Positions 1 through 31,054 of a stretch of DNA of 32,000 nt are shown here, in pieces. The first letter of the stretch is position 1, and each line of letters starts with the position of its first letter. A program made the translations under genes and the position numbers. The stretch is from Delftia acidovorans NBRC 14950 (GTDB lineage Bacteria > Pseudomonadota > Gammaproteobacteria > Burkholderiales > Burkholderiaceae_C): contig NZ_BCZP01000009.1 in the NCBI RefSeq assembly GCF_001598795.1, positions 180,001 to 212,000 of the forward strand. Direction: 5' to 3'. The notes below the pieces were generated by a model, which made no database searches, was not told the DNA's origin, and worked only from the letters and a program-made list of their open reading frames with translations.

Positions 1-380
1 ACCACGGCCTGGCCGCGCCGGGCGCTGTCCGTCCAGGCGTCGCCCAGCACGGCCATGACGCGGCGTGGGCCGCCCTGGTCGTCCTGCACGGGGGCGGCGC
101 CGTAGGGCGGCGACTGTGCCGCCTCGGGCTGGGCCTGGTTGCGGTCCCACCAGGCACGGGCCTCGCTGGCGGCACCGGTGGCCGCGTTGGTGGCCGTGCT
201 GGCTGCGCTGCGGCCGGCCTCCAGCGCCTGCTGGCCGGCCGTGGCGGCGCCCGAGGCCCGCTGCACGGTGTCGGCAGCCTGGCCGATGGCGCCCAGGTCC
301 AGCGCCTGTGCGGCCGGGGCGGCCAGCAGCGCGGCGGCAATCACTGCCGTGGTGGCGCGTGGAAGACGGCGCCCGCTCAT
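1..380 (-). CDS. Partial CDS (first ~126 codons, continues past the left edge): Ala-rich exported protein of unknown function, translationally coupled to clpV
   Basis: Open-ended, so absent from the ORF track. My reverse-complement translation from the ATG at 380-378 reads MSGRRLPRATTAVIAAALLAAPAAQALDLGAIGQAADTVQRASGAATAGQQALEAGRSAAS... with no stop down to position 1. It has a Sec-type signal peptide (RR n-region, hydrophobic core, AQA-L cleavage motif). Third codon positions are G/C-rich like the neighbouring genes. The ATG overlaps the clpV stop (ATGA at 377-380). Confidence 0.5.
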   Translation of the reverse strand, partial: MSGRRLPRATTAVIAAALLAAPAAQALDLGAIGQAADTVQRASGAATAGQQALEAGRSAASTATNAATGAASEARAWWDRNQAQPEAAQSPPYGAAPVQDDQGGPRRVMAVLGDAWTDSARRGQAV

Positions 381-3118
381 GCGGGCTCCGCAGCGCGGGT
401 GCGCACGTCCAGCGTGAAGTCGTCGCCGCTGGCGCCGGCGTGCAGGCTTTGCAGTTCCTGGCCTTCCACGGTGGCCTGCAGGAAGTGGGTTGCCATGCGC
501 GGCAGCAGGTTCTGGGTGAGGATGCCGTCCACCATGCGCGCGCCGGACTCGACCTCGCTGCAGCGGCGGCGCACCAGGTCCACGGCGGCTTCGTCGAAGC
601 TGAACTGCGCGCCGTGGCGCTCTTCGATGCGCCGCTGTATGCGCAGCATCTGCAACCGGATGATCTGCTCCAGCATGGCGTCCGAGATGGGGTAGTAGGG
701 CACCACCGTCAGGCGGCCCAGCAGCGCGGCGGGAAAGGTCTGCAGCAGCGGCTGGCGCACGGCCTGGGCCAGGCCTTCCGGCGTGGGCGCCAGGTCCGGG
801 TCGCGGCACATGTTGGCGATCAGGTCCGAGCCCACGTTGGAGGTCAGGATGATGACGGTGTTCTTGAAGTCGATGTAGCGGCCCTCGCCGTCCTCCATCC
901 AGCCCTTGTCGAAGACCTGAAAGAACATCTCGTGCACGTCGGAGTGGGCCTTCTCTATTTCATCGAGCAGGACCACGCTGTAGGGGCGGCGGCGCACGGC
1001 CTCGGTCAGCACGCCGCCTTCGCCGTAGCCCACGTAGCCCGGTGGCGCGCCCTTGAGGGTGGAGACGGTGTGCGCCTCCTGGAACTCGCTCATGTTGATG
1101 GTGATGAGGTTCTGCTCGCCGCCGTACAGGGCTTCGGCCAGGGACAGCGCCGTCTCGGTCTTGCCCACGCCCGAGGGACCGGCCAGCAGGAACACGCCGA
1201 TGGGCTTGCCCGGGTCGTCCAGCCGCGCGCGCGATGTCTGGATGCGGCGCGTGATGGCCTCCAGGCCGTGGCGCTGGCCGATGACGCGCTTCTCCAGCGT
1301 GTCTGCCAGCGAGAGCACGGACTGCACCTCGTCGCGCACCATGCGGCCCACGGGAATGCCGGTCCACTCGGCCACCACGGCGGCGACCACGCCGGCATCG
1401 ACTACGGGCTGCAGCAGCGGGGCATCACCCTGCAGCTCGGCGAGCTGGCGGCGCAGCGCTTCCAGCGCGGCCACGCTGGGGGGCTCGGCAGGTTCGGTTG
1501 CGGTGGCTTCGGCGGCCGTTTCCGGCGCCGCAGCGGACGGGTCTGCGGCGGCGCCGGTGGAGAAGACGGGCGGCTTCAGGCCCATGAGGGCGGCCTCGGT
1601 TTCCAGGATGCGGCGGGCCAGCGCGCTTTCCTGGCCGAAGCGCTCGGCCAGCGTGGCCTGGCGGTCGCGCAGGCTGGCCAGGTCGGTTTCCAGCGCCTGC
1701 AGGCGCTCGGCCGTGGGCAGGCCGAGGGCGGCCTCGCGCAGCAGCACTTCCTGCTCCACGCCCAGGGCCTCGATGCGGCGCTGCACGGCTTCCAGCTGGG
1801 CGGGCGTGGCATGCAGGGCCATGGCCACGCGCGAGCAGGCCGTGTCCAGCAGGCTGACGGCCTTGTCGGGCAGCTGGCGCGAGGGAATGTAGCGGTGCGA
1901 CAGGCTGACGGCCGCGGCCACCGCGTCGGCCGCAATGCGCACCTGGTGGTGGTTTTCCAGCTTGGCGGCCACGCCGCGCAGCATGTCCACGGCGCGGGGC
2001 TCGTCGGGCTCGTGCACCTGAACGAGCTGGAAGCGGCGTGTCAGGGCCGGGTCTTTTTCGATGTATTTCTTGTACTCGGCCCAGGTGGTGGCGCCGATGG
2101 TGCGCAGCGTGCCGCGCGCCAGGGCGGGCTTGAGCAGGTTGGCGGCATCGCCCGTACCGGCCTGGCCGCCCGCGCCCACCAGGGTGTGGACTTCGTCGAT
2201 GAAGAGCACGATGGGCGTGGTGCTGGACTGCACGGCGTCCAGCAGGCCGCGCAGGCGGTTCTCGAACTCGCCCTTCATGCTGGCGCCGGCCTGCAGCAGG
2301 CCCACGTCCAGCACGCGCAGCTCCACGCCCTGCAGCGGCGGCGGCACGTCGCCCTGGGCGATGCGCAGGGCCAGGCCCTCGACCACGGCGGTTTTGCCCA
2401 CGCCGGCCTCGCCCACCAGGATGGGGTTGTTCTGGCGGCGGCGCAGCAGGATGTCCACCATCTGGCGCACTTCGTCGTCGCGGCCCGTGACCGGGTCCAG
2501 CTCGCCCGCCTTGGCGCGGGCCGTCAGGTCCACGGTGTATTGCTGCAGCGCGCCGCCCTGGCCGGGCGCGGTGCCCGTGGCCTGGCTGGCTTCGCCCGGC
2601 GTGCCTTCCAGCCCGCTGCCGTCGGCCGCGCGCATGCGTGCCTCGGGCGAGTCGGGCAGCAGGCGGGCGAAGGCGTCGCTGAGCGCGGGCTCGGAGATCT
2701 TGTCGAATTCGCGCGAGATGGAACGCAGCTCATTGGCCAGCGAGCGCGTGCGCACCATGCCCGACAGCAGATAGGCGCTGCGGATCTGGCTGTCGTTGAA
2801 CATCAGCGTGGCATAGACCCAGCCGCGCTCGATGGCGGTCTCTATGTGCTCGGAGAAGTCGCTGATCGAGGTGGCGCCGCGCGGCAGCTGGTCCAGGCGG
2901 CGCAGCACGTCGGCGGCCAGGCGGTCGGAGGCGATGTCGAAGTGGCGCAGGATGCGGATCAGGTCGCAATCGTTTTCCTGCAGCAGCTGGTGCAGCCAGT
3001 GCACCAGCTCCACATAGGGATTGCCGCGCAGCTTGCAGAACACGGTGGCGCCTTCCAGCGACTTGAACAGCAGCGGGTTGAGCTTGCCGAAGAGGGATTG
3101 GCGGCTGATTTCTGTCAT
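377..3118 (-). CDS. clpV: T6SS AAA+ ATPase ClpV (TssH), 913 aa
   Basis: ORF 377..3352 trimmed to Met79 (ATG at 3118, MTEISRQSLFGKLN...). The upstream 78 codons are Arg/Pro/Ser-rich and run into the neighbouring gene. There are two AAA+ modules: Walker A GEAGVGKTA with Walker B VLFIDEVH, and Walker A GPSGVGKTE with Walker B VVLLDEIEKAH. The layout is ClpB-like and the context is T6SS. Confidence 0.95.
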   Translation of the reverse strand: MTEISRQSLFGKLNPLLFKSLEGATVFCKLRGNPYVELVHWLHQLLQENDCDLIRILRHFDIASDRLAADVLRRLDQLPRGATSISDFSEHIETAIERGWVYATLMFNDSQIRSAYLLSGMVRTRSLANELRSISREFDKISEPALSDAFARLLPDSPEARMRAADGSGLEGTPGEASQATGTAPGQGGALQQYTVDLTARAKAGELDPVTGRDDEVRQMVDILLRRRQNNPILVGEAGVGKTAVVEGLALRIAQGDVPPPLQGVELRVLDVGLLQAGASMKGEFENRLRGLLDAVQSSTTPIVLFIDEVHTLVGAGGQAGTGDAANLLKPALARGTLRTIGATTWAEYKKYIEKDPALTRRFQLVQVHEPDEPRAVDMLRGVAAKLENHHQVRIAADAVAAAVSLSHRYIPSRQLPDKAVSLLDTACSRVAMALHATPAQLEAVQRRIEALGVEQEVLLREAALGLPTAERLQALETDLASLRDRQATLAERFGQESALARRILETEAALMGLKPPVFSTGAAADPSAAAPETAAEATATEPAEPPSVAALEALRRQLAELQGDAPLLQPVVDAGVVAAVVAEWTGIPVGRMVRDEVQSVLSLADTLEKRVIGQRHGLEAITRRIQTSRARLDDPGKPIGVFLLAGPSGVGKTETALSLAEALYGGEQNLITINMSEFQEAHTVSTLKGAPPGYVGYGEGGVLTEAVRRRPYSVVLLDEIEKAHSDVHEMFFQVFDKGWMEDGEGRYIDFKNTVIILTSNVGSDLIANMCRDPDLAPTPEGLAQAVRQPLLQTFPAALLGRLTVVPYYPISDAMLEQIIRLQMLRIQRRIEERHGAQFSFDEAAVDLVRRRCSEVESGARMVDGILTQNLLPRMATHFLQATVEGQELQSLHAGASGDDFTLDVRTRAAEPA

Positions 3119-3167
3119 GGGTCTTGGGTGCGAAAAAAAGTGGATGAATGGGGGCCGGGCATGCCGG

Positions 3168-3731
3168 CTAGCGGAGGGGGCGGACTTCGACCTTGCGGCC
3201 CTTGGCCTGGCACTGCGCCAGCAGCCGGTCGACCCAGGCGCGTTCGACGAGGAAGCTGCTGCCGGTCGTTTCCTGCGCCGTTTCACGGACGTCGGTGGCG
3301 AGGTGGATGGTCTTGGCTTCAGACAAGGCATCGCCATCCCATTGCGCTTCATCCGGCGATGGTTTGGCGGTGAAGCGGCGCTGTCCCAGATTGGCGATCT
3401 GGCGACCTTCGAGCCAGACCATCCAGACCGACGATCGCGCAGGGACTGCGCTGCGGTTGTGCTGTTGCACGAAGCAAAAGCGCTGGAGGGCTGCAGGCTT
3501 TCCGGGGCCAGTCGATGCCTGGCGGCTCTTCAAATAGAGACGCAGGGCGGCTGGAGAAGGAATCAGGGATTGCGCCGGACGCGAGAAATCGGAGGCCCGC
3601 CCGCTTTCAGGCGCTGCCAGCAAAGGCAGTGCCGATCCCGCAAGGGTGGCCAGCAGACACCTTGCGAGCAGGCGACGGCCTTGCCTGACACGGCATGGGC
3701 CGGGAAAGCGGTTGCGTCCGATATGCGGCAT
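3168..3731 (-). CDS. Exported (periplasmic) protein, putative immunity paralog 2 for the upstream effector candidate, 187 aa
   Basis: ORF 3168..3731 has an N-terminal signal peptide (RRLLARCLLATLAGSALPLLAAP). The C-terminal ~140 aa align with the adjacent paralog (FCFVQQ, VWM.W, SIHLATDVRETA.E.TGSSFLVERAWV.RLLAQC.AKGR). It starts 5 nt after the stop of paralog 1. Confidence 0.7.
   Translation of the reverse strand: MPHIGRNRFPGPCRVRQGRRLLARCLLATLAGSALPLLAAPESGRASDFSRPAQSLIPSPAALRLYLKSRQASTGPGKPAALQRFCFVQQHNRSAVPARSSVWMVWLEGRQIANLGQRRFTAKPSPDEAQWDGDALSEAKTIHLATDVRETAQETTGSSFLVERAWVDRLLAQCQAKGRKVEVRPLR
3194..3310. repeat. Copy A of a ~117 nt near-identical segment shared by the two immunity paralogs (3' coding ends)
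   Basis: Manual gap-free alignment of 3194-3310 with 3762-3878 (offset 568 nt) gives roughly 11 mismatches in 117 nt. Confidence 0.8.
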
Positions 3732-3735
3732 GCGG

Positions 3736-4332
3736 CTATCGAGCAGGAGTCACTTTGATGGTGCGGCCCTTGGCCTTGCACTGCGCCAGCAGTCTGTTCA
3801 CCCAGGCGCGTTCGACGAGAAAGCTGCTGCCGGTGATTTCCTCTGCCGTTTCACGGACGTCTGTGGCGAGGTGGATGGACTTGCTTCGTGCCAAGCCTTG
3901 GCCGTCTTCTTCGGCCTCTTGCGCCGTCGCGTGGACCTGGGCCGGCAGCCGACCCAGATTGAGAATCTCGCCGCCGTCTTGCCAGATCATCCAGACGAAG
4001 GGTCCTGGATCTTCGGGTGGCGTGGAGCGCTGCTGGACAAAGCAAAAGTGCTGGGGCCTCCCCGCCATGGATGTGCCTGCACGCCTTTCCTTGAGCTGAA
4101 GGTAGGCGCGCAGCACGGTGGGCGAGGGGATGCTTGCCTTGCTGGGGCGCGAAAAGTCGGCGGGAACGGGATCTCGGGGTGCTGCTGGTGTTGGCGTAGC
4201 GGTGGCGTTGTCTGCCGCTTCAGATGTATGGGCAGGCGCGGAGACAGACAGAGCCAGCGTGGCCACTAGACATGCAGTCCATCGTATGCGGCAGGCGGGT
4301 AGCCAGGAACTCTTTGGTTGTGGCATGGGCAT
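3736..4332 (-). CDS. Exported (periplasmic) protein, putative immunity paralog 1, 198 aa
   Basis: ORF 3736..4563 trimmed to Met78 (ATG at 4332, MPMPQPKSSWLPACRIRWTACLVATLALSVSAPAHT...). This start lies 29 nt downstream of the effector stop, whereas the full ORF would overlap the effector gene by ~200 nt. It has a signal peptide, then a Pro/Thr/Ala linker, then the domain shared with 3168..3731. The alternative start at 4326 is equally possible. Confidence 0.7.
   Translation of the reverse strand: MPMPQPKSSWLPACRIRWTACLVATLALSVSAPAHTSEAADNATATPTPAAPRDPVPADFSRPSKASIPSPTVLRAYLQLKERRAGTSMAGRPQHFCFVQQRSTPPEDPGPFVWMIWQDGGEILNLGRLPAQVHATAQEAEEDGQGLARSKSIHLATDVRETAEEITGSSFLVERAWVNRLLAQCKAKGRTIKVTPAR
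3762..3878. repeat. Copy B of the ~117 nt segment shared by the immunity paralogs
   Basis: See copy A. Example: tgcggcccttggcct[g/t]gcactgcgccagcag...cccaggcgcgttcgacgag[g/a]aagctgctgccggt... Confidence 0.8.
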
Positions 4333-4360
4333 GGTGTCGGGAGTTGGTGGGACAGGGTCT

Positions 4361-5200
4361 TCAGTCCTGCTTGCGCAGTCGGGCATGCGTGTAGAAGGTG
4401 TTGCCCATGAGCGTGGCGTGCACCTTGAAATCCGGACCGGGCGAACCACTGCCTTCCGATCGCCAGGCATACAGGCCGGTGCTTGTGGGATCCGCAGCGA
4501 GCGGTTCGGAGGCAACAGTGATGGCCGCTTGTACAAACTGCTGGTACGCCGTCCGCTTGCCATGCAGGCCGTTGTTGGCGATCTGCAGGTAGTCCGTGAG
4601 GTTTTCCTGCATGTTTTGGTTCAGCGTGGGATAGGTCGGAAAGCCATGGAACTGCACCATGCCTCGGTCGTTGGCCTTGATGATGTCGGCGATGGTGGTT
4701 GCACCGCGGGCCATGAACTCCTCGGGCTTGCCGCTCTTGAGCCGGTTCTCGATGACGCGACGCATCCAGCGCATGGACGTCAGGACGTCGGAAGCTTTCC
4801 ATGCGACGTTTCGGGGGGCGCCGTCTGGCGAGAAGTTCTCGGCCAGCAGCAGGCGTACCAGCATCCCCTCCGTCGTCTTCTCCGCAGGCAGCGAAATGCT
4901 CTTCTCCACCTGCACGGTGATGGCTGCGGGCATGACGCTAAGCCCGGTTCCCTGCACCGCCACGATGCTGAGCTTGGTGAGCCCGGGCTGCTGGGCCACG
5001 AAGTCGAATTGCCAGCTGTCGGCGCGGGCGTTGTGGGCGGGGGGCTGGGCCGCAAGAATGCTGGGCGCATCGATCCTGGCGCCCAGCTTGTAGGTCTTTG
5101 CGACGGCCTCGATCTTGACGCGCAGGCGGTTGCCTTCGACCAGCGTCAGCGTGGAAGGGACCGGTGCGTTGTGCAGGAACTTGATCTGTACGGTGGGCAT
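4361..5200 (-). CDS. Candidate T6SS effector, 279 aa: beta-rich N-domain plus a SleB/CwlJ-like (Hydrolase_2-like) cell-wall hydrolase C-domain (inferred)
   Basis: ORF 4361..5200 with no signal peptide. The C-terminal half carries, in order, LLLAEN, MRRVIENRLKS, MVQFHGF, GLYAW and MGNTFY. This order is collinear with my recollection of the Hydrolase_2 signature (GEA.., AVa.VilNRv.s, qF, yF, h.FY). The gene lies between tssG and clpV and is followed by two exported-protein genes. Confidence 0.6.
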   Translation of the reverse strand: MPTVQIKFLHNAPVPSTLTLVEGNRLRVKIEAVAKTYKLGARIDAPSILAAQPPAHNARADSWQFDFVAQQPGLTKLSIVAVQGTGLSVMPAAITVQVEKSISLPAEKTTEGMLVRLLLAENFSPDGAPRNVAWKASDVLTSMRWMRRVIENRLKSGKPEEFMARGATTIADIIKANDRGMVQFHGFPTYPTLNQNMQENLTDYLQIANNGLHGKRTAYQQFVQAAITVASEPLAADPTSTGLYAWRSEGSGSPGPDFKVHATLMGNTFYTHARLRKQD

Positions 5201-5218
5201 GTGTGCGAGCAGGGAAGT

Positions 5219-5250
5219 GGTGATTCAGTGGTTCGGTGATTCAGTGGTTC
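5219..5250. repeat. Perfect 16-bp tandem duplication (ggtgattcagtggttc x2) spanning the tssG stop codon
   Basis: Read directly: 5219-5234 and 5235-5250 are identical. The tssG stop (tca at 5225-5227) lies in copy 1. The same triplet in copy 2 is out of frame. Confidence 0.9.
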
Positions 5251-6415
5251 GAGGGCTGGGGCCGGGGCGCCGGCCCCGCACGGGCTGGCGGCGCTGGCGC
5301 AGCCAGGCTTCGGGGTCCAGGCGGAAGTCGCGCGCGTCCTGGGCGGGCTCGGCGTGGGTGAGCCAGGTGGTCCAGCCCAGCTGGGTGCTGCTGCCCAGCC
5401 GGGCGGCAGGCACTTCCTGGCGGCGCAGCACCAGCACGTAGTCCCAGGCGAATTCGATGCCCAGGTAGTTGCGCACCCAGTCCACCAGGGTCTGGAACAG
5501 TGCGGCCTGCGGCAGCAACTGCTGGTATTGCTCCAGGCCCAGCGGGCCGAGCACCAGGCGGAACTTGCTTTGCGCATCGGGCACGCGCGAGCCCACGACG
5601 GCGTCCACGCCCAGGCGCGAGTTGCAGGGGCGGCCCTGCAGCCGGGTCTGCTGCTCGGGCTCCAGCTCCAGGTGGTGCAGGCAGTTTTCTTCCAGCCGCA
5701 CGGGAATCTGGAAGTAGTGCGACAGGGCCTGGCACAGGCCTTCGGGGTTGCGCGTCCAGCGGGTCAGATGGCCGGCCATGAAGCGCTTGGCGTGGTCGGG
5801 CACGTCGTCGCGCGCGCGCTGGCTGGGCAGGCCGGCGCCTATGAAACTGTCTATGTAGCGGCCAAAGGGGTCTTCGCCCGGGCGGTCCAGCGATGCGGTG
5901 GGCTGTGCGTCCGACCAGGCGCGGAACAGCAGCAGCAGCATGCGGTGGTGAAAGATGTCGGAAAAGCGTGCCAGCGTGGCGTCGTCATGCTGACGCAGGC
6001 GCTCGCGCACGTATTCGGTGATGTGCGTGGGCAGCGGGCCGTTGGGGCCGTAGAGGCCGAAGTTCCAGACCGTCATGCGCTCGGGCTCGCCGGCGCGCGA
6101 GGGCAGGATTTCTGCAATGGTGGCGGGGGCGAAGGCCAGCGACGGGTCCTGGCCCAGGCGCAGCGGCTCGTCCTTGGGGCGCGTGGCCTGGCCCAGGCGC
6201 GGCAGCGCGGGATGGCGTGCCTGCAGGTAGCGCAGGCTGTGCATCAGGTCGAACTGGTAGGGCTTGGCGCTCAGGCGCTGCCAGAACAGGCGCGCCCGAG
6301 CGTCGTCGGGCCCGGCGGCCTGCACGGGCGCACGCGCGGGCGCCGGAGCTGGAGCCGGAGCCGCCGACTGGAGGTGCTCCGGTTCGGGCAGCGGGGCGTG
6401 GGCGGCGTTGCTCAT
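5225..6415 (-). CDS. tssG: T6SS baseplate protein TssG (ImpH/VasB), 396 aa
   Basis: ORF 5225..6964 trimmed to MSNAAHAPLPEPEH... (ATG at 6415), which overlaps the tssF stop (ATGA at 6412-6415). An Ala/Pro-rich N-terminus is followed by YQFDLMHSLRYLQA...PRLG...RLGQDPSLAFAPA, typical of TssG. The gene sits in the tssE-tssF-tssG order. Confidence 0.9.
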   Translation of the reverse strand: MSNAAHAPLPEPEHLQSAAPAPAPAPARAPVQAAGPDDARARLFWQRLSAKPYQFDLMHSLRYLQARHPALPRLGQATRPKDEPLRLGQDPSLAFAPATIAEILPSRAGEPERMTVWNFGLYGPNGPLPTHITEYVRERLRQHDDATLARFSDIFHHRMLLLLFRAWSDAQPTASLDRPGEDPFGRYIDSFIGAGLPSQRARDDVPDHAKRFMAGHLTRWTRNPEGLCQALSHYFQIPVRLEENCLHHLELEPEQQTRLQGRPCNSRLGVDAVVGSRVPDAQSKFRLVLGPLGLEQYQQLLPQAALFQTLVDWVRNYLGIEFAWDYVLVLRRQEVPAARLGSSTQLGWTTWLTHAEPAQDARDFRLDPEAWLRQRRQPVRGRRPGPSPRTTESPNH

Positions 6416-8873: not shown

Positions 8874-9338
8874 TCAAGGGCCAGTGCGGCCCGAATCGGC
8901 CAGTGGGTTCTCGGGCTCCTTGCCTTTCAGTGCAGGGTCCTTGCGACAGGCTGAGAGAGGCCGTGCACGTGCAGAGAAGATCTGCACGATCTGCTCTTTG
9001 CCATTGTCAGTGGACACCTTCAGGCAGGCACAGCCATAACCGGCACTGCCATGACTTGTGCGCACCCAGTCACGGTCCGTGAAACGCGGCCATTCGCCGC
9101 GCGCCTGGTGGCCGCCCTGCTGGCCGATGGTCCATTCGGCCTGGCTGTCGGTCAGCGATGCATTGCCCGGGGTGGGGTTGTCGAACCAGCCACAGCGCAT
9201 GGCATTGGACGGGCCGGGGCCTGCAGCTGATGCAAGCCATGGGCCCACGCACATTACGGCGGCCAGCAGAATGCGCGGGCAGCGAAGAGTGGCCGGGAAC
9301 GGGGTGGCACTTGCTTTTGGCATTGTCTTGTCCTTCAT
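8874..9338 (-). CDS. Small exported Cys-containing protein, putative immunity for the GH19-like effector (DUF4087-like by recollection), 154 aa
   Basis: ORF 8874..9644 trimmed to MKDKTMPKASATPF... (ATG at 9338), which overlaps the effector stop (ATGA at 9335-9338). It has a signal peptide (ILLAAVMCVGPWLASAAG). It also has the motifs RCGWFDNPTPGN, WTIGQQGG and GYGCACLKV. Confidence 0.7.
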   Translation of the reverse strand: MKDKTMPKASATPFPATLRCPRILLAAVMCVGPWLASAAGPGPSNAMRCGWFDNPTPGNASLTDSQAEWTIGQQGGHQARGEWPRFTDRDWVRTSHGSAGYGCACLKVSTDNGKEQIVQIFSARARPLSACRKDPALKGKEPENPLADSGRTGP

Positions 9339-10231
9339 GGCGTGGCGGTGGCTGCCGGTTTGAGGACGCGGGCCTCCAGGAGGATGGCCTGGAACTTGGT
9401 GGCGATGGCTGCGATGTCGGTGGCATGGTCGCTGCCGTTGACCATGCGCCGCGCACCGACGTAGTCCGTGGCACTGCCCAGGAAGAACTGACTGAAGCGT
9501 CGGCCGTTGGCAAAACCTTCCCCGGTACGCATGCCATGTGACATGAGGGCGTAGGCCACCTCGGGTGTCTTGACCAGTTCGGGGTCCAGCAACAGGCCCA
9601 TGCCTCGGCCCACGGCCACGCCGGCGGCTGCATAGTTGGACCACCAGGTGAGCTGGACGTAGCCGCGCCCGTAGAACGCCTGCTCGGCACCGTCGTCCGT
9701 TTCGTAGGCCTTGACGGCGGCGCCGCCATCCTTGGTGCCCATGACCGCCTTGGCCTGGCGGGGCGTCACGGAGCCATTGGGAGAGACGTAAAACTGGTCT
9801 CCATCCTGTTCGGTGATGCGTATCCTGCCGTCAGGCTGCATCTTGATCTTCACGGGCTCGTGATAGCGCCGCCCCTTGCCCTTACCCGCCTCGTTGACAG
9901 GCGCCATGGTCATCAGCCATTTGCGCTCGCGCACGACGATGGGGCGCTTGTGCTTGTCCAGAAGCGGCTGACCCTTCTTGTTGACTGCGATCCGTTCCAC
10001 ACTGGTCGGAGAGGTCGTCTCCCACATCACGGTAGCCAGCATGTAGGCCGCGTAGCGGATGTCGTTGATGCCGGGGTCCTTTTCGATCATGCCCAGCAGT
10101 TGGGCGGCGGCAGGAATGGCAGCGGCATCGAACCGCGCGTCCTTGCCGAACTGCTGCATGAACTCGCGCTGGAACACCGCGCGGTCGTAAGTGCCTGCGT
10201 ATTGGAAGCTGGGTGTAGTCTTGTTGGTCAT
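9335..10231 (-). CDS. GH19/lysozyme-like peptidoglycan glycoside hydrolase, putative T6SS effector (Tge-like), 298 aa
   Basis: ORF 9335..10450 trimmed to Met74 (ATG at 10231, MTNKTTPSFQY...). It has no signal peptide. A candidate catalytic Glu lies in ATVMWE(71)TTSPTSVE. FYGRGYVQLTWWSNYAAAG matches the GH19 YYGRGPIQ(L/I)S.NYNYG motif. The gene sits inside the T6SS core operon and is followed by an exported protein. Confidence 0.75.
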   Translation of the reverse strand: MTNKTTPSFQYAGTYDRAVFQREFMQQFGKDARFDAAAIPAAAQLLGMIEKDPGINDIRYAAYMLATVMWETTSPTSVERIAVNKKGQPLLDKHKRPIVVRERKWLMTMAPVNEAGKGKGRRYHEPVKIKMQPDGRIRITEQDGDQFYVSPNGSVTPRQAKAVMGTKDGGAAVKAYETDDGAEQAFYGRGYVQLTWWSNYAAAGVAVGRGMGLLLDPELVKTPEVAYALMSHGMRTGEGFANGRRFSQFFLGSATDYVGARRMVNGSDHATDIAAIATKFQAILLEARVLKPAATATP

Positions 10232-10271
10232 GCGTGTCGATATGGATAGGCAGTCATTGGGGCAGGCCAGA

Positions 10272-11078
10272 TCAGCCGACGGTCTCCAGCGCCAGCTGGC
10301 GCACTTGCAGCATGGGAAAGTCCTCGGAGTCGGTGACCCAGGTGCGTTGGCCGTGTCCGGCCACGTGGCCCGAGGATTCGTCAGGATCGGAGGCATCTGT
10401 GTCCAGCGGGCTCCACTGCGTGCGGCGCGACATGCGGACGGCGTCGTCATCGCCGGGCGCCAGCGGATAGCGCGCGGGCATGAAGCCCTGCAGCGCGCCG
10501 CCCTCGCGCAGCGTGACCTCGCAGGGCAGCCAGATCAGGTCGCGCAGGTCCTGCACGGGCTCGAAGCCGATCTGTGCAATGGCGTCGAAGGGCAGCCAGT
10601 AGTAGCTGCCGTGCGCCAGCAGCTCGCAGACGGGCCCCAGGCGGGTATCGCTGTCGGCCAGCCATTCGAAGCGGTGCTCGCCCATGTGGCCGGCCGTGGC
10701 GGGCGCTTCGTCCAGGGCGCGGGCGCGCAGGTCCTGGGCGGCCGCTCCTTCATGGGCCAGGGCGTCGATCAGGCAGGCCAGCCATTGCGCGGGCTCGCCC
10801 ATGAGAAAGGGCTTTTTCTTGCCGGCGAAGACCTCGGCGCGCAGCACTTCGCAGCGGATGGCCTCGCGGTAGGCGCGCGCCATAGGCTCGCACGACGGGT
10901 CGAGCTGGGCGCACAGCTGCAGCTGCTCCAGCGCCTTTTGCCATTCGCCCAGCACGCACAGCAGCTGGAAGTAGTAGACGCGCAGGGGCGCCGAGGCCGG
11001 TGCCTGGCGGATCTGGTCCTTCAGAGCCTTGAGTTGCTCGTCCAGGGAAAGCTGTGAGGTGAAGCTGGGCAGGGGCAT
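10272..11078 (-). CDS. tagJ: T6SS accessory protein TagJ (ImpE/SciE family), 268 aa
   Basis: ORF 10272..11078 has a TPR-like N-terminus (LRVYYFQLLCVLGEWQKALEQLQLCAQLDP). The C-terminal ImpE-like part (GSYYWLPFDAI...IWLPCEVTLREGG) fits the family. Its position relative to tssC and tssE matches P. aeruginosa H1. Confidence 0.85.
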   Translation of the reverse strand: MPLPSFTSQLSLDEQLKALKDQIRQAPASAPLRVYYFQLLCVLGEWQKALEQLQLCAQLDPSCEPMARAYREAIRCEVLRAEVFAGKKKPFLMGEPAQWLACLIDALAHEGAAAQDLRARALDEAPATAGHMGEHRFEWLADSDTRLGPVCELLAHGSYYWLPFDAIAQIGFEPVQDLRDLIWLPCEVTLREGGALQGFMPARYPLAPGDDDAVRMSRRTQWSPLDTDASDPDESSGHVAGHGQRTWVTDSEDFPMLQVRQLALETVG

Positions 11079-11126: not shown

Positions 11127-11696
11127 TCAGTCGTCGTAGGAGCGGCAGCCCCAGCGCACGGCGTCGGGCGCCTCGCCGGCCACATGGCCGATGACGATGC
11201 GCGGTGGCGTCTCGTCCAGGCCCTTTCTGAGCGGCATGGCGCGCGTGTACTGGGCGGGCAGCTCGCCAAAGCCTTCAAGATCCCAGCGGCTGCGCGCCTG
11301 CGGCCGGGCCTTGGTGCGCTGGACCAGCGCCTGCAGGCTGCCCGTGGCGCGCGCCGCGACAATGCTGCCGCTGCCGCCGCGCACGGTGATGGAGGACACC
11401 TGCGTGCCATCGATCTCCAGCGGCGTGGCAAACAGATAAAGCAGGTCCAGGCTTTCGCCGGGCGCGCGGTCCACCACGGTCACGCCCTGCGCGCGCAGGC
11501 GCTGGGCCAGCGCTTCGTCGCGGCCGTCGGGAAACTCGATGCGGCAATGCAGGGCGTCGGTGAACAGGGTGGTGATGTCCGCTGCCGTGGCAGGTGCGGC
11601 TTGCACCGTGGCGCAGGCCGTGCCGGCCAGCAGCAGGGTGAAGAAAGCTTTGGAACAGGCGTTCATGGCGTGGCTCAATGGGCGCATCAGGCGCAT
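11127..11696 (-). CDS. Exported protein, putative immunity (Tai-like) for the upstream amidase, 179-189 aa
   Basis: This is the C-terminal part of the composite ORF 11127..12791. Candidate starts are 11696 (MRLMRPLSHAMNACSK..., overlapping the effector stop as TGATG), 11687 and 11666 (MNACSK...). The signal peptide is AFFTLLLAGTACATVQA-AP. It lies directly 3' of the amidase gene. Confidence 0.7.
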   Translation of the reverse strand: MRLMRPLSHAMNACSKAFFTLLLAGTACATVQAAPATAADITTLFTDALHCRIEFPDGRDEALAQRLRAQGVTVVDRAPGESLDLLYLFATPLEIDGTQVSSITVRGGSGSIVAARATGSLQALVQRTKARPQARSRWDLEGFGELPAQYTRAMPLRKGLDETPPRIVIGHVAGEAPDAVRWGCRSYDD

Positions 11697-12067
11697 CAGG
11701 GATGGCGGTAGATCTTGAAAGCGGGCTTGTGGGTGCGGTAGCCGGGGCCTGCCCAGAAACCGTTCTGCTTGAAGTCCGAGATCCAGACGCTTCCGTCGAA
11801 CATCTGCATGTGGCCGGCGGGCGATGAGGTGAAGCCCTGCATCACCGCCACATCGCCCTTCTTGTAGCCACCTTCGGGCATGGCGTCGTAGCGTGTGAAG
11901 CCGGCGGCCACCAGGCTGGTGCCGTAGTCCTTGGCATCGCGCGTGCGCTGCAGTGCGATGCCGCCAGCGCCGATCGCATCGCGCACATAGCGCGCGCAGT
12001 AGCCGGCGGAACTGGCGCGGGCATTGGTCTGCAGGGTGGCGACGGCGTTGTCTACATTCCAGGGCAT
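11696..12067 (-). CDS. Small papain-like (NlpC/P60-CHAP superfamily) peptidoglycan amidase, putative T6SS effector (Tae-like), 123 aa
   Basis: ORF 11696..12067 with no signal peptide. The Cys...His pair is GYC(24)ARYVRDA and PAGH(86)MQMFDG. A GAGAGG Shine-Dalgarno lies ~8 nt upstream. An exported-protein gene follows. Confidence 0.7.
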   Translation of the reverse strand: MPWNVDNAVATLQTNARASSAGYCARYVRDAIGAGGIALQRTRDAKDYGTSLVAAGFTRYDAMPEGGYKKGDVAVMQGFTSSPAGHMQMFDGSVWISDFKQNGFWAGPGYRTHKPAFKIYRHP

Positions 12068-14372: not shown

Positions 14373-14795
14373 TCATGGGGCAGCCAGCTCCTTGAAAGTG
14401 AAGTCCGGGGCCAGCAGGTCCGTGCATTCCTCGCAGTAGAGGTAGGCGATGGAGCGCTTGTTCTCCGCCGTCCCCCAGCCCGTGCCGCTGTCGATGGTCA
14501 GGTTGACCTGGCGGCCTCCCTTGAAGCGCACGACGGCACTGGCACTGCAGCTACCGGTTTCATAGGCATGCGCGTAATTGAACTGGCTGCTGGGCTTGGC
14601 GTGGCGCAGGAAGTAGCGCGCGCGCTTTTCGTCAATGCGCAGTGAATCGCAATGGATGCTGGGGTCTTCGCTTTTGGCGGTGCCGTCGCGGATCGTGATG
14701 CGCTCGATGGCGTTTGCAGGCCGTGCACCGGCATCTGCGAAGGCTGGCGTCGAGAGACCCACGCCCAGGGCCATGAAACAGCATTTGGCATTCAT
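14373..14795 (-). CDS. Small exported Cys-containing protein of unknown function, 140 aa
   Basis: ORF 14373..14795 has the signal peptide MNAKCCFMALGVGLSTPAFA-DAG and four Cys in the mature part. Its ATG overlaps the tssA stop (ATGA at 14792-14795). Third positions are G/C-rich. I recognise no family. Confidence 0.6.
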   Translation of the reverse strand: MNAKCCFMALGVGLSTPAFADAGARPANAIERITIRDGTAKSEDPSIHCDSLRIDEKRARYFLRHAKPSSQFNYAHAYETGSCSASAVVRFKGGRQVNLTIDSGTGWGTAENKRSIAYLYCEECTDLLAPDFTFKELAAP

Positions 14796-15817
14796 GTCTG
14801 CTGGTCCTGCAGGTGGGCGCCCGTGATCACTTCCACCTGGGCCAGGCTGTCGGGCGACAGCTCGCGCAGGATGTCCATGAAGCCCATGCGCATGAAGCGG
14901 GCGGCACGGCGGATGAGCAGGGGGGCGGGGTTGGAGGGCTCGGTGCGCTCCACGAAGGCGGCGATCTCCAGCAACTGGGCAATCGCCTGTTCGCGGTTGC
15001 GCGCCGGGGCGGGTGCCGAGCCTGGCGCGGGGTGGGCCACCGTGCCGCCCTCTGTGCCGGTTTGTGCGGCCGGATCGGTTTCAGCGTCCGTGTCGGCATC
15101 GCCTGTGGACTGGGGCTGCCATTGCCTGAGGGCCAGCAGCAGCTGGCGCAGGCCGTCGAGCTCGGGCTGCTGGTGGCTGGGCAGGTGCTGTTCGCAGCAG
15201 GCGCGGATCCGGTCGAGTTCCTGCAGCGCAGGGGTGACGGCCAGCAGGGTTTCGTGGCCCTCGGCATGCGCGCGGGCCGAGGCCATGCGCAATTCGTCGG
15301 CGGTCAGGTGCGGCAGGTCCTCGGGCACGTTGCCCTTGGCCATCAGTTCGGCGTCGCGCACGCTGATCTGGCCCAGCGCGCCGCGCAGGAAGTCGGCGTT
15401 GCGCAGGTCACGCACAAAGCCTGTCACGTCCGACAGGGTGCCCAGGGCATTCATGCGCATGAAGTAGTCGTCGCCATCCTCGGGCAGGGGGTGGACATGC
15501 TCCCAGTGGCGCTCCAGCAGGGCGCCGCACAGCTGCAGGCCCTGCAGCGTACCGGGCAGGCCGTGCAGGATGGTCCAGGCTCGGCACAGCAGCACGGCCA
15601 CGCGCAGGTCCTTGGTGCGCTGCATCAGGGCCGAGGCCTGGCGCTCCACATCGCGCCAGTCCGGTGGCTCGGCGGGGATGACGGTGTCGCCGAACTGCTG
15701 TTCTACCTTGCCCTGGGCAGCGCTTTCCATGGCCTGGAAATCGTTGTCATAGGTAAGGTCCGGGCCGCAGGGCGGCTCGGCGGCGGTCTCGGTCAGCAGG
15801 TCCTGGATATTGGCCAT
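14792..15817 (-). CDS. tssA: T6SS protein TssA (ImpA N-terminal domain, short form), 341 aa
   Basis: ORF 14792..15817. The N-terminus PCGPDLTYDNDFQAME...PPDWRDVERQASALMQRTKDLRVAVLLCRAW matches the ImpA_N domain signature. Confidence 0.9.
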   Translation of the reverse strand: MANIQDLLTETAAEPPCGPDLTYDNDFQAMESAAQGKVEQQFGDTVIPAEPPDWRDVERQASALMQRTKDLRVAVLLCRAWTILHGLPGTLQGLQLCGALLERHWEHVHPLPEDGDDYFMRMNALGTLSDVTGFVRDLRNADFLRGALGQISVRDAELMAKGNVPEDLPHLTADELRMASARAHAEGHETLLAVTPALQELDRIRACCEQHLPSHQQPELDGLRQLLLALRQWQPQSTGDADTDAETDPAAQTGTEGGTVAHPAPGSAPAPARNREQAIAQLLEIAAFVERTEPSNPAPLLIRRAARFMRMGFMDILRELSPDSLAQVEVITGAHLQDQQT

Positions 15818-16560: not shown

Positions 16561-19500
16561 TCACAGCCGGTCCGGACATTCGAATTCCTCCATGGCCTTG
16601 AGCCGGAATGGGTTGAGGACGCTGCTGGTGGTGACTTCCATGCGCAGCTTGCGTCCGTCGATGGTGAAGATGGCCGTGAAACGCTCGGGCGAGTTGCCCG
16701 GCAGGATCTGGGCACGGTCGAACAGGCGGTGCAGCGCCCAGGGGCCTTCGGTCACGATGCCGGTGTTCTGGGCGCCGGCGGCCGTGATCTGCAGGCGTGT
16801 CTGGCCGGTGCCGCGCGTGCCCGGCCAGGAGACGGCCTTGGGGATTTGCGGGCCGTGCTGGTAGCGCACGATTTCGCCGTCCACGTCCAGCACCATCTGG
16901 GAGATGGAGGCGTCCATGTCCAGCGGCTTGATCTCCAGCCGGATACCGGGCGTGTTGCCGCCTGCGCGGAAGAACACGTCGCGGATGGAGGCCGCGCGCT
17001 GGAAGGCGGCCAGCGAGGCAGAGCCCCCCACCGGCGTGCCGTCCACACCCTGCTTGAAGGTCCAGGGCACGGTGGAGATGTCCACCATGGTCTGCAGCTG
17101 GGTGCGGAAGAACTCGTCCATGGTGCCGCCGGTGGCGAACAGGCGGGCGAAGTCGTCCGTGGTTACGTCGCGCGTGGCGCTGCGCGTGAAGGGGTAGCGG
17201 CCCAGGATGGCCCGGCGGCAGAAGTCGCCGATGGTGGCGTTGAGGTTGCCGCCCAGCGTGCTGCGCACGCTGCTTCCCACGAAGGACGAGGTGGACGTGG
17301 CCAGGGCCTCGTACATGCTGTTGAGCGGAGGCGGCACGCGCTTGGCTTCCGAGCGCACCTTCTCCAGCGTGCCGCTTAGCGAGGGAGGCACGCCGCCGCC
17401 CTGGATCACCTGCTGGCGCGCCGAGGCGATGACGGCCGCCGCCTCGTTGAGCACCTGCAGGCTGGCGGTGATGGGAGCCGGGCCCGAGCCGTTGCTGGTG
17501 GCAAGGCGCCGGTATTCGCGGAAGCGGAAGTCCACGATGTCGGCCTCCAGCGTGCCGGTGGCCAGCATGCCGCCCACGTTCAGCGGCTTGCCGGTCAGGC
17601 GGCTGAGCTGGTGCTGTTCCTCGCGGATGCGCTGCAGTTTCTCGCCCAGCCAGCTGCTGGTGCTGCCCGAGCTGCTGCCTTCCTGCTGGTCCGGGCGGCG
17701 GGCCAGCGTGGTCTCGCGGGCCACGGCGCGGATGAACTGCTCCAGGCTGGAGTTGGCGGACGAGTACAGGCGGGCCTGCTCGCCGGCCTGCTCCAGCGAG
17801 GCCGTGCGTATGGGGCGGATGTCGGCCAGGAAGGTTTCCCACAGGCGCGCGTATTCCATGAGGTACAGGCGCTTGACCTCGTTGGCCAGCTGGCCCGTGA
17901 GCACTTCCTGGGCCACGCTGCGCCGGCCTTCGGCCTGGCCCAGCACCCAGGTTTCCTCCTTGGCCAGCAAGGTGGTGACCTTGGGCAGCTCGTGCAGGAA
18001 GAGGCCGTGGTAGCCGTCATAGGTGAACAGGCCGCTGATGCCCTGGGTGAGCGGCTTGCCGCTGGCACGCGCAAAGACCTGGGGCGCCTCGGGACCGCTG
18101 GCACGCACCACGCTGAAGTCGGGCGGCAGCTTGTCGCCGGTGTTCAGCAGCTGCTTGAGGCGGCTGTAGGCGCGCTGGGCGGGCGACATCTGGGCCAGGC
18201 GCTGGCGCACCTCGGCGACCAGGTTGGCGTCGATGGGCTGGGCGGAGACCACCACGCGGCCGTCGATGAGGCGGTCCAGGTGCTCGGACAGCTGGTCCAC
18301 CAGGCCGGCCTGCACCAGATGCTGGGGCAGGGTGTTTTCCCAATCGCTGCGCAGCCAGGCCTTGACGAAGGTGGCGTCGAAGTGGTCGGGCTCGTAGAGC
18401 ATGAGATAGGCCTTGAGCGTTTCGTAGCTGGCCTCGGGGCTGCCGGTGCTGACCTGGCGCAGCGAGCGCGCGACATGGCTGCTCAGGCGCGGCAGCCAGG
18501 CGTCTTCCAGCAGGCGCAGGTAGGTGGCGTGGGCGGCCGTCTGCACCTTGGGCACCTGCAACAGGCCCCAGCGCCAGCCCAGCGGGGCCGATTCCTCGAA
18601 GCGGCTGCTCTGCGCCACGCGCGCCGCGTGGTTGAGCATGGGCACCAGGGCGACCACGTTGTCGGGGTCGGTGGCCTTGGATTCCTCCACGGCCTGGCGT
18701 AGCGTGCCGGCGTTGTCGGCCACTTCGTTCAGGTAGCGCTGGTTGTTCTCGTAGCTCAGCGTCCAGGCCAGGGCCGCGCCGCCCAGGGCCAGCAGCAGAG
18801 CGCACAGGCCGGCGGCCTGCATCAGGCGCAGCTGGCGCTCTTTCTTGGCGTTGCGCCCGGTCAGGCCGGACTCGTTGAACATCACGTCCTTGAACAGCGA
18901 CTCCAGGAAGTAGCTGCGGCCCTGCTGTGGCACGGCATCGGCCGGCAGGCGGCCACGCAGCGCAAAGCGGCGCGACAGGGCCGACATCACGCGGTCGAAG
19001 GGCATGCCCTCCTGCGTTCCGCTGGTGAAGTAGACGCCGCGCAGCAGCGGCTTTTCCTTGAAGCGCGAGGCGGAGAACGCCGCATCCAGCGTGTCGCGCA
19101 CCACGTCCTTGAGGCCGGCAAACTGCTGGGGCAGGGCGTAGAGCAGGCTGCGGCGCGCAAGGTCGGGCTCGGTCATCAGCCGCTGGGGCAGCAGGCGGTT
19201 GATCTGGGCGACCAGTGCGTCGAACTCCTCCATGTACAGGGCGCTGGCGGCCTGCGGGTCGCTGGCGGGCGAGCGCTGGGTCTTTTCGTCATAGGGATAG
19301 GTGAAGCCCCAGACCTGGGCGCGCTCCTCGCGGCTCATGGCCCCGAAGAACTCGTTGAAGCCCGCCAGCAGGTCGCTCTTGGTGACCAGCACGTAGACGG
19401 GGAAGCGGATGGTCAGCTCCTCGCACAGCTCGCTCAGGCGCAGGCCGATCAGCTGGGCCAGCTGGGCGCGCTCGGCGTCGCTGGCACTGAGCAGCTCCTG

Positions 19501-20217
19501 CACGCTGAGCGTGACGATCACGCCGTTGACGGGCTGGCGTCCGCGAAAGCGCTTGAGCAGCTGCATGAAGCCCTTCCAGGCTGCCTTGTCCTGCTCCGCA
19601 TCGCTTTCCTGGGTGGTGTAGCGGCCGGCCGTGTCCAGCAGCACGGCCTGGTCGGTGAACCACCAGTCGCAGTTGCGCGTGCCGCCTATGCCGGGGATGG
19701 CGCGCTTGCCGAACTGGGCCGCCAGCGGGAAGTCCAGCCCCGAGTTGATCAGGGCCGTGGTCTTGCCCGAACCCGGCGAGCCGATGATCAGGTACCAGGG
19801 CAGCTGGTAGATGTAGCGCTTGTTCCAGCGGCCGAACAGGCCGCCTTCGGTCTGGCCGAAGCGGGTCTTGCTCAGCGTGTCCAGGGCTTCCTTGAAGCGC
19901 GACTCCAGCTCGGCCACTTCCTCGGAGCCTGCTGCGGGCGTGCCGTCCGCCTCGCGCGGCGAGGTCAGGCGGGCCAGGCCGGTCATGAGGTGCTCGTTCA
20001 TGCGCTGTGCGCGCCACCAGCGCAGCAGCAGGCGCAGGAACCAGAGGATGAACAGGCCGGCAATGATCCACCAGCGCACTGTGGGGCTGCCCAGTGGCTG
20101 GTAGGGCTGGATGAAGACGAGCGGGCCGACGAACCAGATGAGCAGGCTCAGGGCCACCAGGCCCAGAAGCTCCAGCATGTAGCGGTTGAACAGCCATGAG
20201 GCGATGCGACGGATCAT
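16561..20217 (-). CDS. tssM: T6SS membrane complex protein TssM (IcmF), 1218 aa
   Basis: ORF 16561..20271 trimmed to MIRRIASWLFNRYMLELLGLVALSLLIW (ATG at 20217, 4 nt after the tssL stop). It has N-terminal TM helices, the Walker A GSPGSGKTT, and IcmF-like length. Confidence 0.95.
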   Translation of the reverse strand: MIRRIASWLFNRYMLELLGLVALSLLIWFVGPLVFIQPYQPLGSPTVRWWIIAGLFILWFLRLLLRWWRAQRMNEHLMTGLARLTSPREADGTPAAGSEEVAELESRFKEALDTLSKTRFGQTEGGLFGRWNKRYIYQLPWYLIIGSPGSGKTTALINSGLDFPLAAQFGKRAIPGIGGTRNCDWWFTDQAVLLDTAGRYTTQESDAEQDKAAWKGFMQLLKRFRGRQPVNGVIVTLSVQELLSASDAERAQLAQLIGLRLSELCEELTIRFPVYVLVTKSDLLAGFNEFFGAMSREERAQVWGFTYPYDEKTQRSPASDPQAASALYMEEFDALVAQINRLLPQRLMTEPDLARRSLLYALPQQFAGLKDVVRDTLDAAFSASRFKEKPLLRGVYFTSGTQEGMPFDRVMSALSRRFALRGRLPADAVPQQGRSYFLESLFKDVMFNESGLTGRNAKKERQLRLMQAAGLCALLLALGGAALAWTLSYENNQRYLNEVADNAGTLRQAVEESKATDPDNVVALVPMLNHAARVAQSSRFEESAPLGWRWGLLQVPKVQTAAHATYLRLLEDAWLPRLSSHVARSLRQVSTGSPEASYETLKAYLMLYEPDHFDATFVKAWLRSDWENTLPQHLVQAGLVDQLSEHLDRLIDGRVVVSAQPIDANLVAEVRQRLAQMSPAQRAYSRLKQLLNTGDKLPPDFSVVRASGPEAPQVFARASGKPLTQGISGLFTYDGYHGLFLHELPKVTTLLAKEETWVLGQAEGRRSVAQEVLTGQLANEVKRLYLMEYARLWETFLADIRPIRTASLEQAGEQARLYSSANSSLEQFIRAVARETTLARRPDQQEGSSSGSTSSWLGEKLQRIREEQHQLSRLTGKPLNVGGMLATGTLEADIVDFRFREYRRLATSNGSGPAPITASLQVLNEAAAVIASARQQVIQGGGVPPSLSGTLEKVRSEAKRVPPPLNSMYEALATSTSSFVGSSVRSTLGGNLNATIGDFCRRAILGRYPFTRSATRDVTTDDFARLFATGGTMDEFFRTQLQTMVDISTVPWTFKQGVDGTPVGGSASLAAFQRAASIRDVFFRAGGNTPGIRLEIKPLDMDASISQMVLDVDGEIVRYQHGPQIPKAVSWPGTRGTGQTRLQITAAGAQNTGIVTEGPWALHRLFDRAQILPGNSPERFTAIFTIDGRKLRMEVTTSSVLNPFRLKAMEEFECPDRL

Positions 20218-20221
20218 GGGA

Positions 20222-29873: not shown

Positions 29874-29924
29874 GCAATCCCACCCAAGATGTTGTTTCAC
29901 ACCCTGGCGGGCGATGTCTGTCGC

Positions 29925-29939
29925 GCAGCCAGGGTGCCG
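29925..29939 (-). promoter_or_regulatory. Candidate sigma54 (-24/-12) promoter facing ppkA
   Basis: The minus strand reads cGGCAC-cctgg-cTGC (reverse complement of plus 29925-29939), against the consensus TGGCAC-N5-TTGC. The predicted start would be ~40 nt upstream of the ppkA ATG at 29873. Confidence 0.4.
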
Positions 29940-30436: not shown

Positions 30437-30452
30437 AGGCTATTGGGTTGCA
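30437..30452 (+). promoter_or_regulatory. Candidate sigma54 (-24/-12) promoter facing hcp
   Basis: The plus strand reads aGGCta-ttggg-TTGCA (GG at 30438-30439, GC at 30450-30451), so the spacing is correct. The -12 element is good and the -24 element is degenerate. The predicted start would be ~25 nt upstream of the hcp ATG. Confidence 0.3.
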
Positions 30453-30488
30453 TGCGAACGTTTAATCCATTAGTTCGAGAGGTGTGCA

Positions 30489-30971: not shown

Positions 30972-30979
30972 GCTTCCTC

Positions 30980-31029: not shown

Positions 31030-31054
31030 GTTGCCGTGGACAGGCGGGAATATG

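Follow-up and report, generated by a model that had tools for sequence, protein, structure and literature searches.

Which role is played by three co-directional genes that lie between tssG and clpV, two core genes of a type VI secretion system (T6SS), in Delftia acidovorans NBRC 14950? The question is raised by a stretch of 32,000 nucleotides (contig NZ_BCZP01000009.1, positions 180,001 to 212,000), called the window below, to which all coordinates refer. The three genes are read from its minus strand. Gene 1 (4361-5200) is an open reading frame (ORF) encoding 279 amino acids; gene 2 (3736-4332) encodes a protein of 198 residues, if the first Met lying outside gene 1 is taken as its start, and gene 3 (3168-3731) a protein of 187 residues. 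The analyses reported here make it probable that gene 1 encodes an antibacterial cargo effector of the H1-like T6SS of Delftia, with gene 2 providing the cognate immunity protein and gene 3 an orphan one.

The insert is flanked upstream by tssG (5225-6415, minus strand; PF06996, E 1.1e-107) and downstream by clpV, also called tssH (377-3118, minus strand), whose AAA_2, AAA_lid_9, AAA and ClpB_D2-small domains mark the product as a double-AAA ATPase. The ORFs and the domains of both flanking genes confirm that three co-directional genes are wedged between tssG and clpV, as proposed in a preliminary description of the window. From tssG through genes 1, 2 and 3 to clpV, the gaps measure 24, 28, 4 and 49 nt, and neither a promoter-like site nor a minus-strand terminator-like site was found in the interval 2900-5500. 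Because the gaps are short and such sites are absent from the interval, genes 1-3 are probably co-transcribed with the T6SS core genes. The G+C content of the insert is 0.63, compared with about 0.70 (0.69-0.72) in the flanks. A perfect 16-bp tandem duplication (GAACCACTGAATCACC, present twice, minus strand) covers the last codons and the stop of tssG at 5219-5250, a short distance upstream of gene 1, and may be the scar left where the cassette joins the core gene. The D. acidovorans TssG has the same C-terminus as the TssG of the window.

The three genes are genuine, and not chance ORFs of a GC-rich genome, since gene 1 has many relatives (30 close clusters and 460 profile-detected representatives at 50% identity), its AlphaFold2 model, obtained with 22 homologs, is confident (predicted local distance difference test, pLDDT, 94.6), and the ratio of nonsynonymous to synonymous divergence (dN/dS) between its alleles is as low as 0.13-0.30. 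The ten relatives retrieved in a cluster look-up are all annotated solely as 'hypothetical protein'. The encoded protein is composed of two domains. Residues 1-105 (4886-5200, minus strand) correspond to an immunoglobulin-like (Ig-like) beta-sandwich, proposed to act in delivery or loading: in the model, residues 3-99 are all-beta, and the structural matches found by Foldseek are filamin repeats and the Ig-like domains of SbsC (E about 1e-5, probability 1.0). Weak Pfam matches to Invasin_D3 and Big_1 are found in relatives of gene 1. The N-terminus shows no hydrophobic segment, and hence neither a signal peptide nor a membrane anchor, but starts as a beta-strand of the Ig-like domain. Both the all-beta N-terminal module and the lack of a signal peptide had been predicted from the sequence, and both are borne out.

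The remaining part of the protein, residues 106-279 (4364-4885, minus strand), appears to be a divergent member of the SleB/CwlJ (Hydrolase_2) superfamily, related to it by remote, superfamily-level homology and standing outside the Pfam family (PF07486) as it is defined. The six motifs on which the preliminary description based this proposal (LLLAE121N, MRRVIENRLKS, MVQFHGF, QQFVQAAITVA, GLYAW and MGNTFY) are all present at the positions and in the order given there. The domain is predicted to be alpha+beta, with six helices followed by a three-stranded sheet, and reaches a pLDDT of 95.2 when modelled alone. Comparison by hhalign of 156 family domains with 120 CwlJ-like proteins plus SleB gave a probability of 57% (P 1e-4); the CwlJ query used was validated as a Hydrolase_2 member by its score against PF07486 (70.8 bits, E 1.6e-19) and by its retrieval of the SleB structures 4F55 and 4FET. 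With a profile of 21 diverse Hydrolase_2 sequences, in which the earlier set was joined by eight SleB-domain proteins from phages of Gram-negatives (mostly annotated as endolysins or cell wall hydrolases), the probability rose to 79% (P 1.6e-5), over 135 columns running from the first helix to the last strand. Five conserved blocks are collinear with Hydrolase_2 in the hhalign comparison, including the catalytic Glu and the NR, QF, DP and FY motifs.

Further evidence for this relationship comes from single family members and from structure. Among 43 diverse relatives, two match PF07486. P0168, a member of 202 amino acids, is the closest in the family to Pfam Hydrolase_2: its residues 55-140 align in register to positions 2-78 of PF07486, inside the shared domain, with an E-value of 0.0033. 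Since this value is corrected for 24,736 models, and PF07486 was the family named beforehand, the match lies far above chance for one pre-specified family. When the model of the domain was compared by Foldseek with a library of viral structures (BFVD), the top 21 matches were mostly phage proteins named 'cell wall hydrolase SleB', the best being a protein of Pseudomonas phage pf16 (E 6.4e-3, probability 1.00, template modelling score, TM, 0.52, 164 columns). Glu121, whose GAG codon is found at 4838-4840 (minus strand), is placed by the model at the C-terminal end of helix 110-121. It is matched in every alignment by the Glu that serves catalysis in SleB ('YGESRGE') and CwlJ ('RAEAEGE'); it is kept in 155 of the 156 family domains, is invariant in alignment A1, and is accordingly proposed as the catalytic residue. 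In addition, one relative carries a PG_binding_1 domain (E 1.5e-14). In 1212 phage records, mostly from phages of Gram-negatives, the annotated endolysin is a SleB-domain protein; this use implies that the SleB fold acts on ordinary peptidoglycan and does not depend on that of the spore cortex.

Genes 2 and 3 are paralogs (45% identical, E 2e-52). The N-termini of both products contain a basic stretch, a hydrophobic stretch of 15-20 residues and an Ala-rich cleavage-type site, and were judged by eye, from the sequence, to be signal peptides; in some relatives, such as P0181 (VSAC), a lipobox replaces the signal-type site. Two Cys residues, C97 and C185 of gene 2, are invariant in the family. 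Pfam and NCBIfam scans of the two proteins returned nothing meaningful, and profile searches with the family against PDB and Pfam detected no relative. By using a hidden Markov model (HMM) of the family, a member was found beside the gene 1 homolog in 22 of 22 loci with enough flanking sequence, distributed among Delftia, Acidovorax, Acidocella and metagenomes. The number of copies per locus ranges from one to three. Two copies follow the gene 1 homolog in the 13 Delftia loci, the window included; one copy on either side is found in the Acidovorax-type loci L004 and L027; a single copy lies upstream in Acidocella (L005/L006) and in the metagenome contigs L008, L009, L032 and L033, and downstream in L007 and L028. 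The highest number, three immunity paralogs in tandem, lies downstream of a relative at 35% identity in L031 (10717-12336). An enzyme lacking an export signal, next to a conserved periplasmic partner, is the arrangement classically expected of an effector that acts in the periplasm and of its immunity. These results uphold the earlier proposal of two Sec-exported, periplasmic immunity paralogs belonging to a family that was not recognised; the proposal is refined below, gene 2 being assigned as cognate and gene 3 as an orphan of the type of another allele.

The linkage to the T6SS, also part of the preliminary description, is supported by three sets of data. The order tssG-effector-immunity-immunity-clpV is found in three Delftia genomes and nine metagenome contigs, which together with the window make up the 13 Delftia loci. 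Locus L032 (1154-3197) contains a relative with 40% identity and an Ig-like N-domain, arranged in the order hcp-immunity-effector. Finally, a homolog of the T6SS effector Tae3 is wedged between core genes of the same cluster, as described below. In L007 (1-4288), another relative is closely preceded by an RHS-repeat protein and a 108-aa ORF.

Comparison of Delftia strains indicates how the locus evolves. Between the window and D. acidovorans L001, the proteins of the T6SS core are nearly identical (ClpV 99.9%, TssF 99.7%, TssE 99.5%, TssG 95.6%), and so is the N-domain of gene 1 (98.1%), whereas identity drops to 62.6% in the C-domain and to 67-76% in the immunity proteins. Synonymous divergence (dS) climbs from 0.066 (N-domain) to 1.19 (C-domain), an 18-fold jump located at the domain linker, with a dN/dS of 0.27 in the C-domain. 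Because of this combination, the difference between the two C-domains is best read as an old, functional allele imported by recombination at the linker, and not as rapid local change. L001 and L003 combine a shared C-domain (96.6% identity, dS 0.16) with backbones that diverge more strongly (N-domain dS 0.33), and TssF of L003 is 82% identical to that of the window. The toxin domain and the immunity genes are thus swapped between Delftia strains as one cassette, with the N-domain evolving together with the T6SS core.

The same comparison suggests which immunity gene belongs to which toxin. The window carries effector allele W, followed by immunities of type A (gene 2) and type B (gene 3), in that order. 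In L001 allele X is followed by B and A, in L002 allele Y by C and B, and in L003 allele X by B and C. The first gene after the effector therefore tracks the effector allele (W-A, X-B in two loci, Y-C), and the first immunities of the two X loci, L001 and L003, are 90% identical; the second gene is, in all four loci, of the type cognate to another allele. Gene 3 shares 94-96% identity with the second immunity of D. tsuruhatensis, as against only 62% between the toxin domains of the two effectors; its identity to the gene behind effector allele X is 76%. Since the first gene follows the allele and the second matches a different one, gene 2 would be the immunity cognate to gene 1, and gene 3 an orphan with a cross-protective role.

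These data can be combined in a working model. The Ig-like N-domain (residues 1-105) would serve to load the gene 1 protein on either Hcp or the VgrG spike of the secretion apparatus. Once in the periplasm of a rival cell, the C-domain (residues 106-279) would cut peptidoglycan in its glycan strands, with Glu121 acting as the general acid of the cleavage; a lytic transglycosylase is the most likely type of enzyme. In the producer, the gene 2 product would be exported to the periplasm by its signal peptide, where, probably disulfide-bonded, it would block the enzyme arriving from sister cells. The gene 3 product, of a type that follows a different allele in other strains, would probably protect against that allele. 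Toxin domain and immunity genes are exchanged as a cassette, with the recombination break at the linker after residue 105. A wider formulation is put forward only tentatively, as we hold it to be somewhat less probable than its opposite: the Ig-like domain may be a cargo-loading module not recognised so far, which remains tied to its apparatus as toxin domains change behind it, and Delftia populations may maintain at least three toxin alleles (W, X and Y) matched to the immunity types A, B and C, with each strain carrying its cognate immunity and one orphan directed at a rival allele.

The toxin domain is found in several architectures. Among 177 family sequences with a match to the C-domain, 90 have an N-terminal extension of 80-130 residues, corresponding to the Ig-like domain, and in 72 the toxin domain is preceded by fewer than 30 residues; 14 of these 72 carry a long C-terminal extension. 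In the four members of this kind that were inspected (P0105, P0118, P0139 and P0142), the N-terminal toxin domain is followed by 190-310 low-complexity residues, and the protein ends in a conserved motif of the RLPPxGxxxFDPxLTPAWxG(M/L)KLPG type, without Pfam match; this C-terminus may serve to export or anchor the protein by a pathway distinct from the T6SS. The toxin domain also occurs with an SH3-like tail. P0168 has its own N-terminal signal peptide, and may represent a bridge from ordinary secreted SleB-like hydrolases to the toxin family. The toxin domain is therefore modular and may be served by more than one export route; for this reason, T6SS delivery is regarded as likely for the gene 1 family as a whole, but not rated more highly than that, even if the gene context in Delftia is strong.

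Several observations weigh against the interpretation of gene 1 as a T6SS-delivered, SleB-like effector. Outside Delftia most homologs stand in orphan loci, whose surrounding 8-10 kb contain no T6SS gene, and no fusion to PAAR, VgrG, Hcp, MIX or FIX was seen in the relatives scanned; likewise, Pfam scans of 20 long family members revealed no PAAR, VgrG, MIX or XVIPCD-type delivery domain. The signal peptide of P0168 and the long C-terminal extensions hint at other export routes, no obvious Shine-Dalgarno sequence precedes the ATG of gene 1, and the assignment of cognate and orphan immunities is drawn from only four fully analysed loci. A peptidoglycan-degrading toxin with its immunity, released in a bacteriocin-like manner or by another secretion system, with the Ig-like domain binding a receptor and the mobile cassette merely residing within the T6SS cluster, would account for the orphan loci, for the occurrence of the toxin domain alone or with varied modules (signal peptide, C-terminal extension, SH3-like tail), and for the usually extracellular location of Big- and invasin-type Ig domains. 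It fits poorly, however, with a cassette fixed between tssG and clpV, with operon-like spacing, in 13 Delftia loci, with an N-domain that shares the evolution of the T6SS core, exchange being confined to the toxin domain, and with the distant relative in an hcp-immunity-effector module. Moreover, no lysis or release gene adjoins gene 1, and tblastn searches of phages and plasmids with gene 1, its C-domain and P0168 gave no real match. We consider this explanation unlikely. A still less probable alternative, which we regard as very improbable, is that gene 1 is an accessory enzyme of the TagX or MltE type, opening the cell's own wall for the T6SS membrane complex, with genes 2 and 3 as periplasmic regulators. 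A peptidoglycan-cleaving fold encoded within a structural operon would suit this role, and dedicated or recruited peptidoglycan hydrolases are known in T6SS assembly (review PMC10433429). An enzyme without signal peptide or membrane anchor, though, could not reach its own periplasm; variation in the locus is highest in the catalytic domain, which is exchanged between strains along with its partner genes, a pattern that fits a weapon and not a housekeeping function; and the pair is also present in orphan loci, where the partner has one to three copies. On the lack of an export signal and the hypervariability of the catalytic domain, an assembly hydrolase of this type was rejected.

The points against a SleB-like activity come largely from direct searches. 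The search that had been proposed, a scan of the 279-aa protein for PF07486, found nothing: Pfam and NCBIfam scans of gene 1 gave no match, that to PF07486 being absent at E-values up to 1. The best scores in the family, 18.4 bits for P0168 and 12.8 bits for P0033, both lie below the Pfam gathering threshold of 27 bits. PDB sequence searches with gene 1 (phmmer and profile) produced chance matches alone (a designed repeat protein and a homoserine dehydrogenase). Foldseek against PDB reports only the Ig-like domain for the full model and, for the C-domain alone, retrieves neither SleB 4F55 nor lysozyme-like structures (best E 1.9); single E-values against the viral library are modest (6e-3 or weaker), and the hhalign probability is 79%, not above 95%. 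One could thus suppose that the C-domain is a toxin that does not cleave glycan strands but acts on another periplasmic target, its likeness to SleB being limited to the fold or spurious; a length of about 50 residues more than the catalytic domain of SleB, with extra helices, would agree with this. On the other hand, collinearity with Hydrolase_2 extends over five blocks, catalytic Glu included, the top viral structural matches are nearly all SleB-domain proteins, one relative is combined with PG_binding_1, and the immunity is periplasmic; we judge a different target to be improbable. The SleB/CwlJ-like nature of the C-domain claimed in the preliminary description is, in summary, supported by remote homology (hhalign, P0168, viral Foldseek matches and the alignment of E121), but not by direct searches of Pfam or by Foldseek against PDB. 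The preferred interpretation remains a SleB-like cargo effector of the T6SS.

The surrounding region was examined by domain searches, which identified a complete H1-like T6SS cluster on the minus strand of the window. Its order is ppkA (27765-30020), fha, pppA, tssJ, tssK, tssL, tssM (16561-20271), tssA (14792-15817), tssB, tssC, tagJ/ImpE (10272-11078), tssE, tssF, tssG and clpV. The hcp gene (30489-30971) is on the plus strand, divergent from ppkA. At this end of the window, over 29500-32000, G+C falls from about 0.69 to 0.55-0.58.

Two additional modules are inserted between core genes. The tssC-tagJ slot, occupied by hcp in the H1 cluster of P. aeruginosa, contains at 11127-12067 (minus strand) a 123-aa clear homolog of the amidase effector Tae3 (11696-12067; PDB 4HZ9, E 8.6e-33), followed, in immunity position, by a signal-peptide protein of about 189 residues without Pfam match. 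This pair is kept at 99-100% in all nine Delftia metagenome contigs scanned (L018-L026). In the tagJ-tssE slot (8874-10260, minus strand), a GH19-like protein of the chitinase/lysozyme type (Pfam E 1e-5, PDB GH19 matches about 2e-4) has as its downstream neighbour a signal-peptide protein with a DUF4087 domain (E 2.7e-37), and the two probably form a third cell-wall effector-immunity module. Both genes are found at 99% only in L025; most other Delftia loci hold DUF4087 at about 70% and no GH19-like gene, and L018 has neither. Taken with the Tae3 pair, this module makes wedged effector-immunity modules the rule in this cluster. No paper linking PF07486 or DUF4087 with T6SS was found in the literature.

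Among known systems, the closest is T6EC3 of Acinetobacter rudis CIP 110305 (Foldseek cluster 275, IMG gene id 2566738812), a PAAR-fused T6SS effector and structural homolog of SleB, whose toxicity in the periplasm of E. coli is relieved by the signal-peptide immunity T6IC3 and lost in the E108Q mutant (Geller et al. 2024, Mol Syst Biol, PMC11148199). T6EC3 and gene 1, the latter as a predicted toxin, are both T6SS-associated and have a SleB-like C-domain lacking Pfam annotation and a signal-peptide immunity; E108 is an essential Glu about 20 residues into a domain acting in the periplasm, points on which gene 1 is likened to it. The differences are these: T6EC3 is a specialised, PAAR-fused protein, whereas gene 1 represents a cargo form with an Ig-like N-domain and no PAAR found, toxins and immunities having been compared by description; gene 1 lies inside the core operon with two immunities; and, as T6EC3 matched PDB 4F55 by Foldseek and the C-domain of gene 1 did not, the latter is more divergent from SleB. 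The earlier statement that no characterised T6SS effector has this fold has thus been outdated by the 2024 publication of T6EC3 (PMC11148199). Consequently, the claim of an undescribed effector-immunity system does not hold for the kind of effector, but stands for the architecture and for the immunity family.

SleB and CwlJ (PF07486; PDB 4F55, 4FET) share with gene 1 the collinear blocks, the Glu at the end of the first helix and a C-terminal three-stranded sheet with W/Y and FY motifs. Gene 1, in contrast, falls below the Pfam threshold, is about 50 residues longer, is not retrieved with them by Foldseek in PDB, and lacks the N-terminal PG_binding_1 of SleB; its proposed role is that of an inter-bacterial toxin with an immunity, and not spore germination. 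The best structural matches are SleB-domain proteins of Gram-negative phages, annotated as endolysins or cell wall hydrolases (for example those of Pseudomonas phages pf16 and PaYy-2, and of T5-like phages), proteins of 150-210 aa with which gene 1 shares the motifs and a DPT block. No similarity is seen at the BLAST level, however; many of the phage enzymes begin with a signal- or signal-anchor-like segment, and they have no immunity partner. A phage endolysin remnant was also considered as an origin of gene 1, and rejected, given the lack of phage context and the presence of an immunity partner.

Peptidoglycan-degrading T6SS effectors are well known. Tse3/Tge1, Tge2 and Tge3, reportedly described by Whitney et al. 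2013 (as cited in PMC4096383), are glycoside-hydrolase effectors with Tsi3/Tgi immunities, and their effector-immunity genes are often located within or beside T6SS clusters. Gene 1 resembles them as a small, proposed cargo effector without signal peptide, with glycan-strand cleavage (predicted, in its case) and a neighbouring periplasmic immunity; the solved structures of Tse3 and Tge2 gave neither a PDB sequence match nor a Foldseek match to gene 1. Tae3-Tai3 (PDB 4HZ9), present in the same cluster, is also wedged between core genes and targets peptidoglycan, but Tae3 is a cysteine amidase acting on the peptide stem, unrelated in fold and chemistry.

To these systems the locus adds a cargo, non-PAAR form of a SleB-like effector, whose Ig-like N-domain could be a loading module, and an immunity family without Pfam or PDB relative, which tracks the toxin across Beta- and Alphaproteobacteria. 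With several hundred members, the gene 1 family links classical Hydrolase_2 enzymes to inter-bacterial toxins. In Delftia, one T6SS cluster holds three different candidate cell-wall-targeting modules between its core genes, and the tssG-clpV locus offers a clean natural experiment in cassette exchange, in which cognate and orphan immunities rotate among strains. If the matching of toxin alleles to immunity types is true, Delftia would possess a compact strain-discrimination system, built on a new family of periplasmic, disulfide-bonded immunity proteins.

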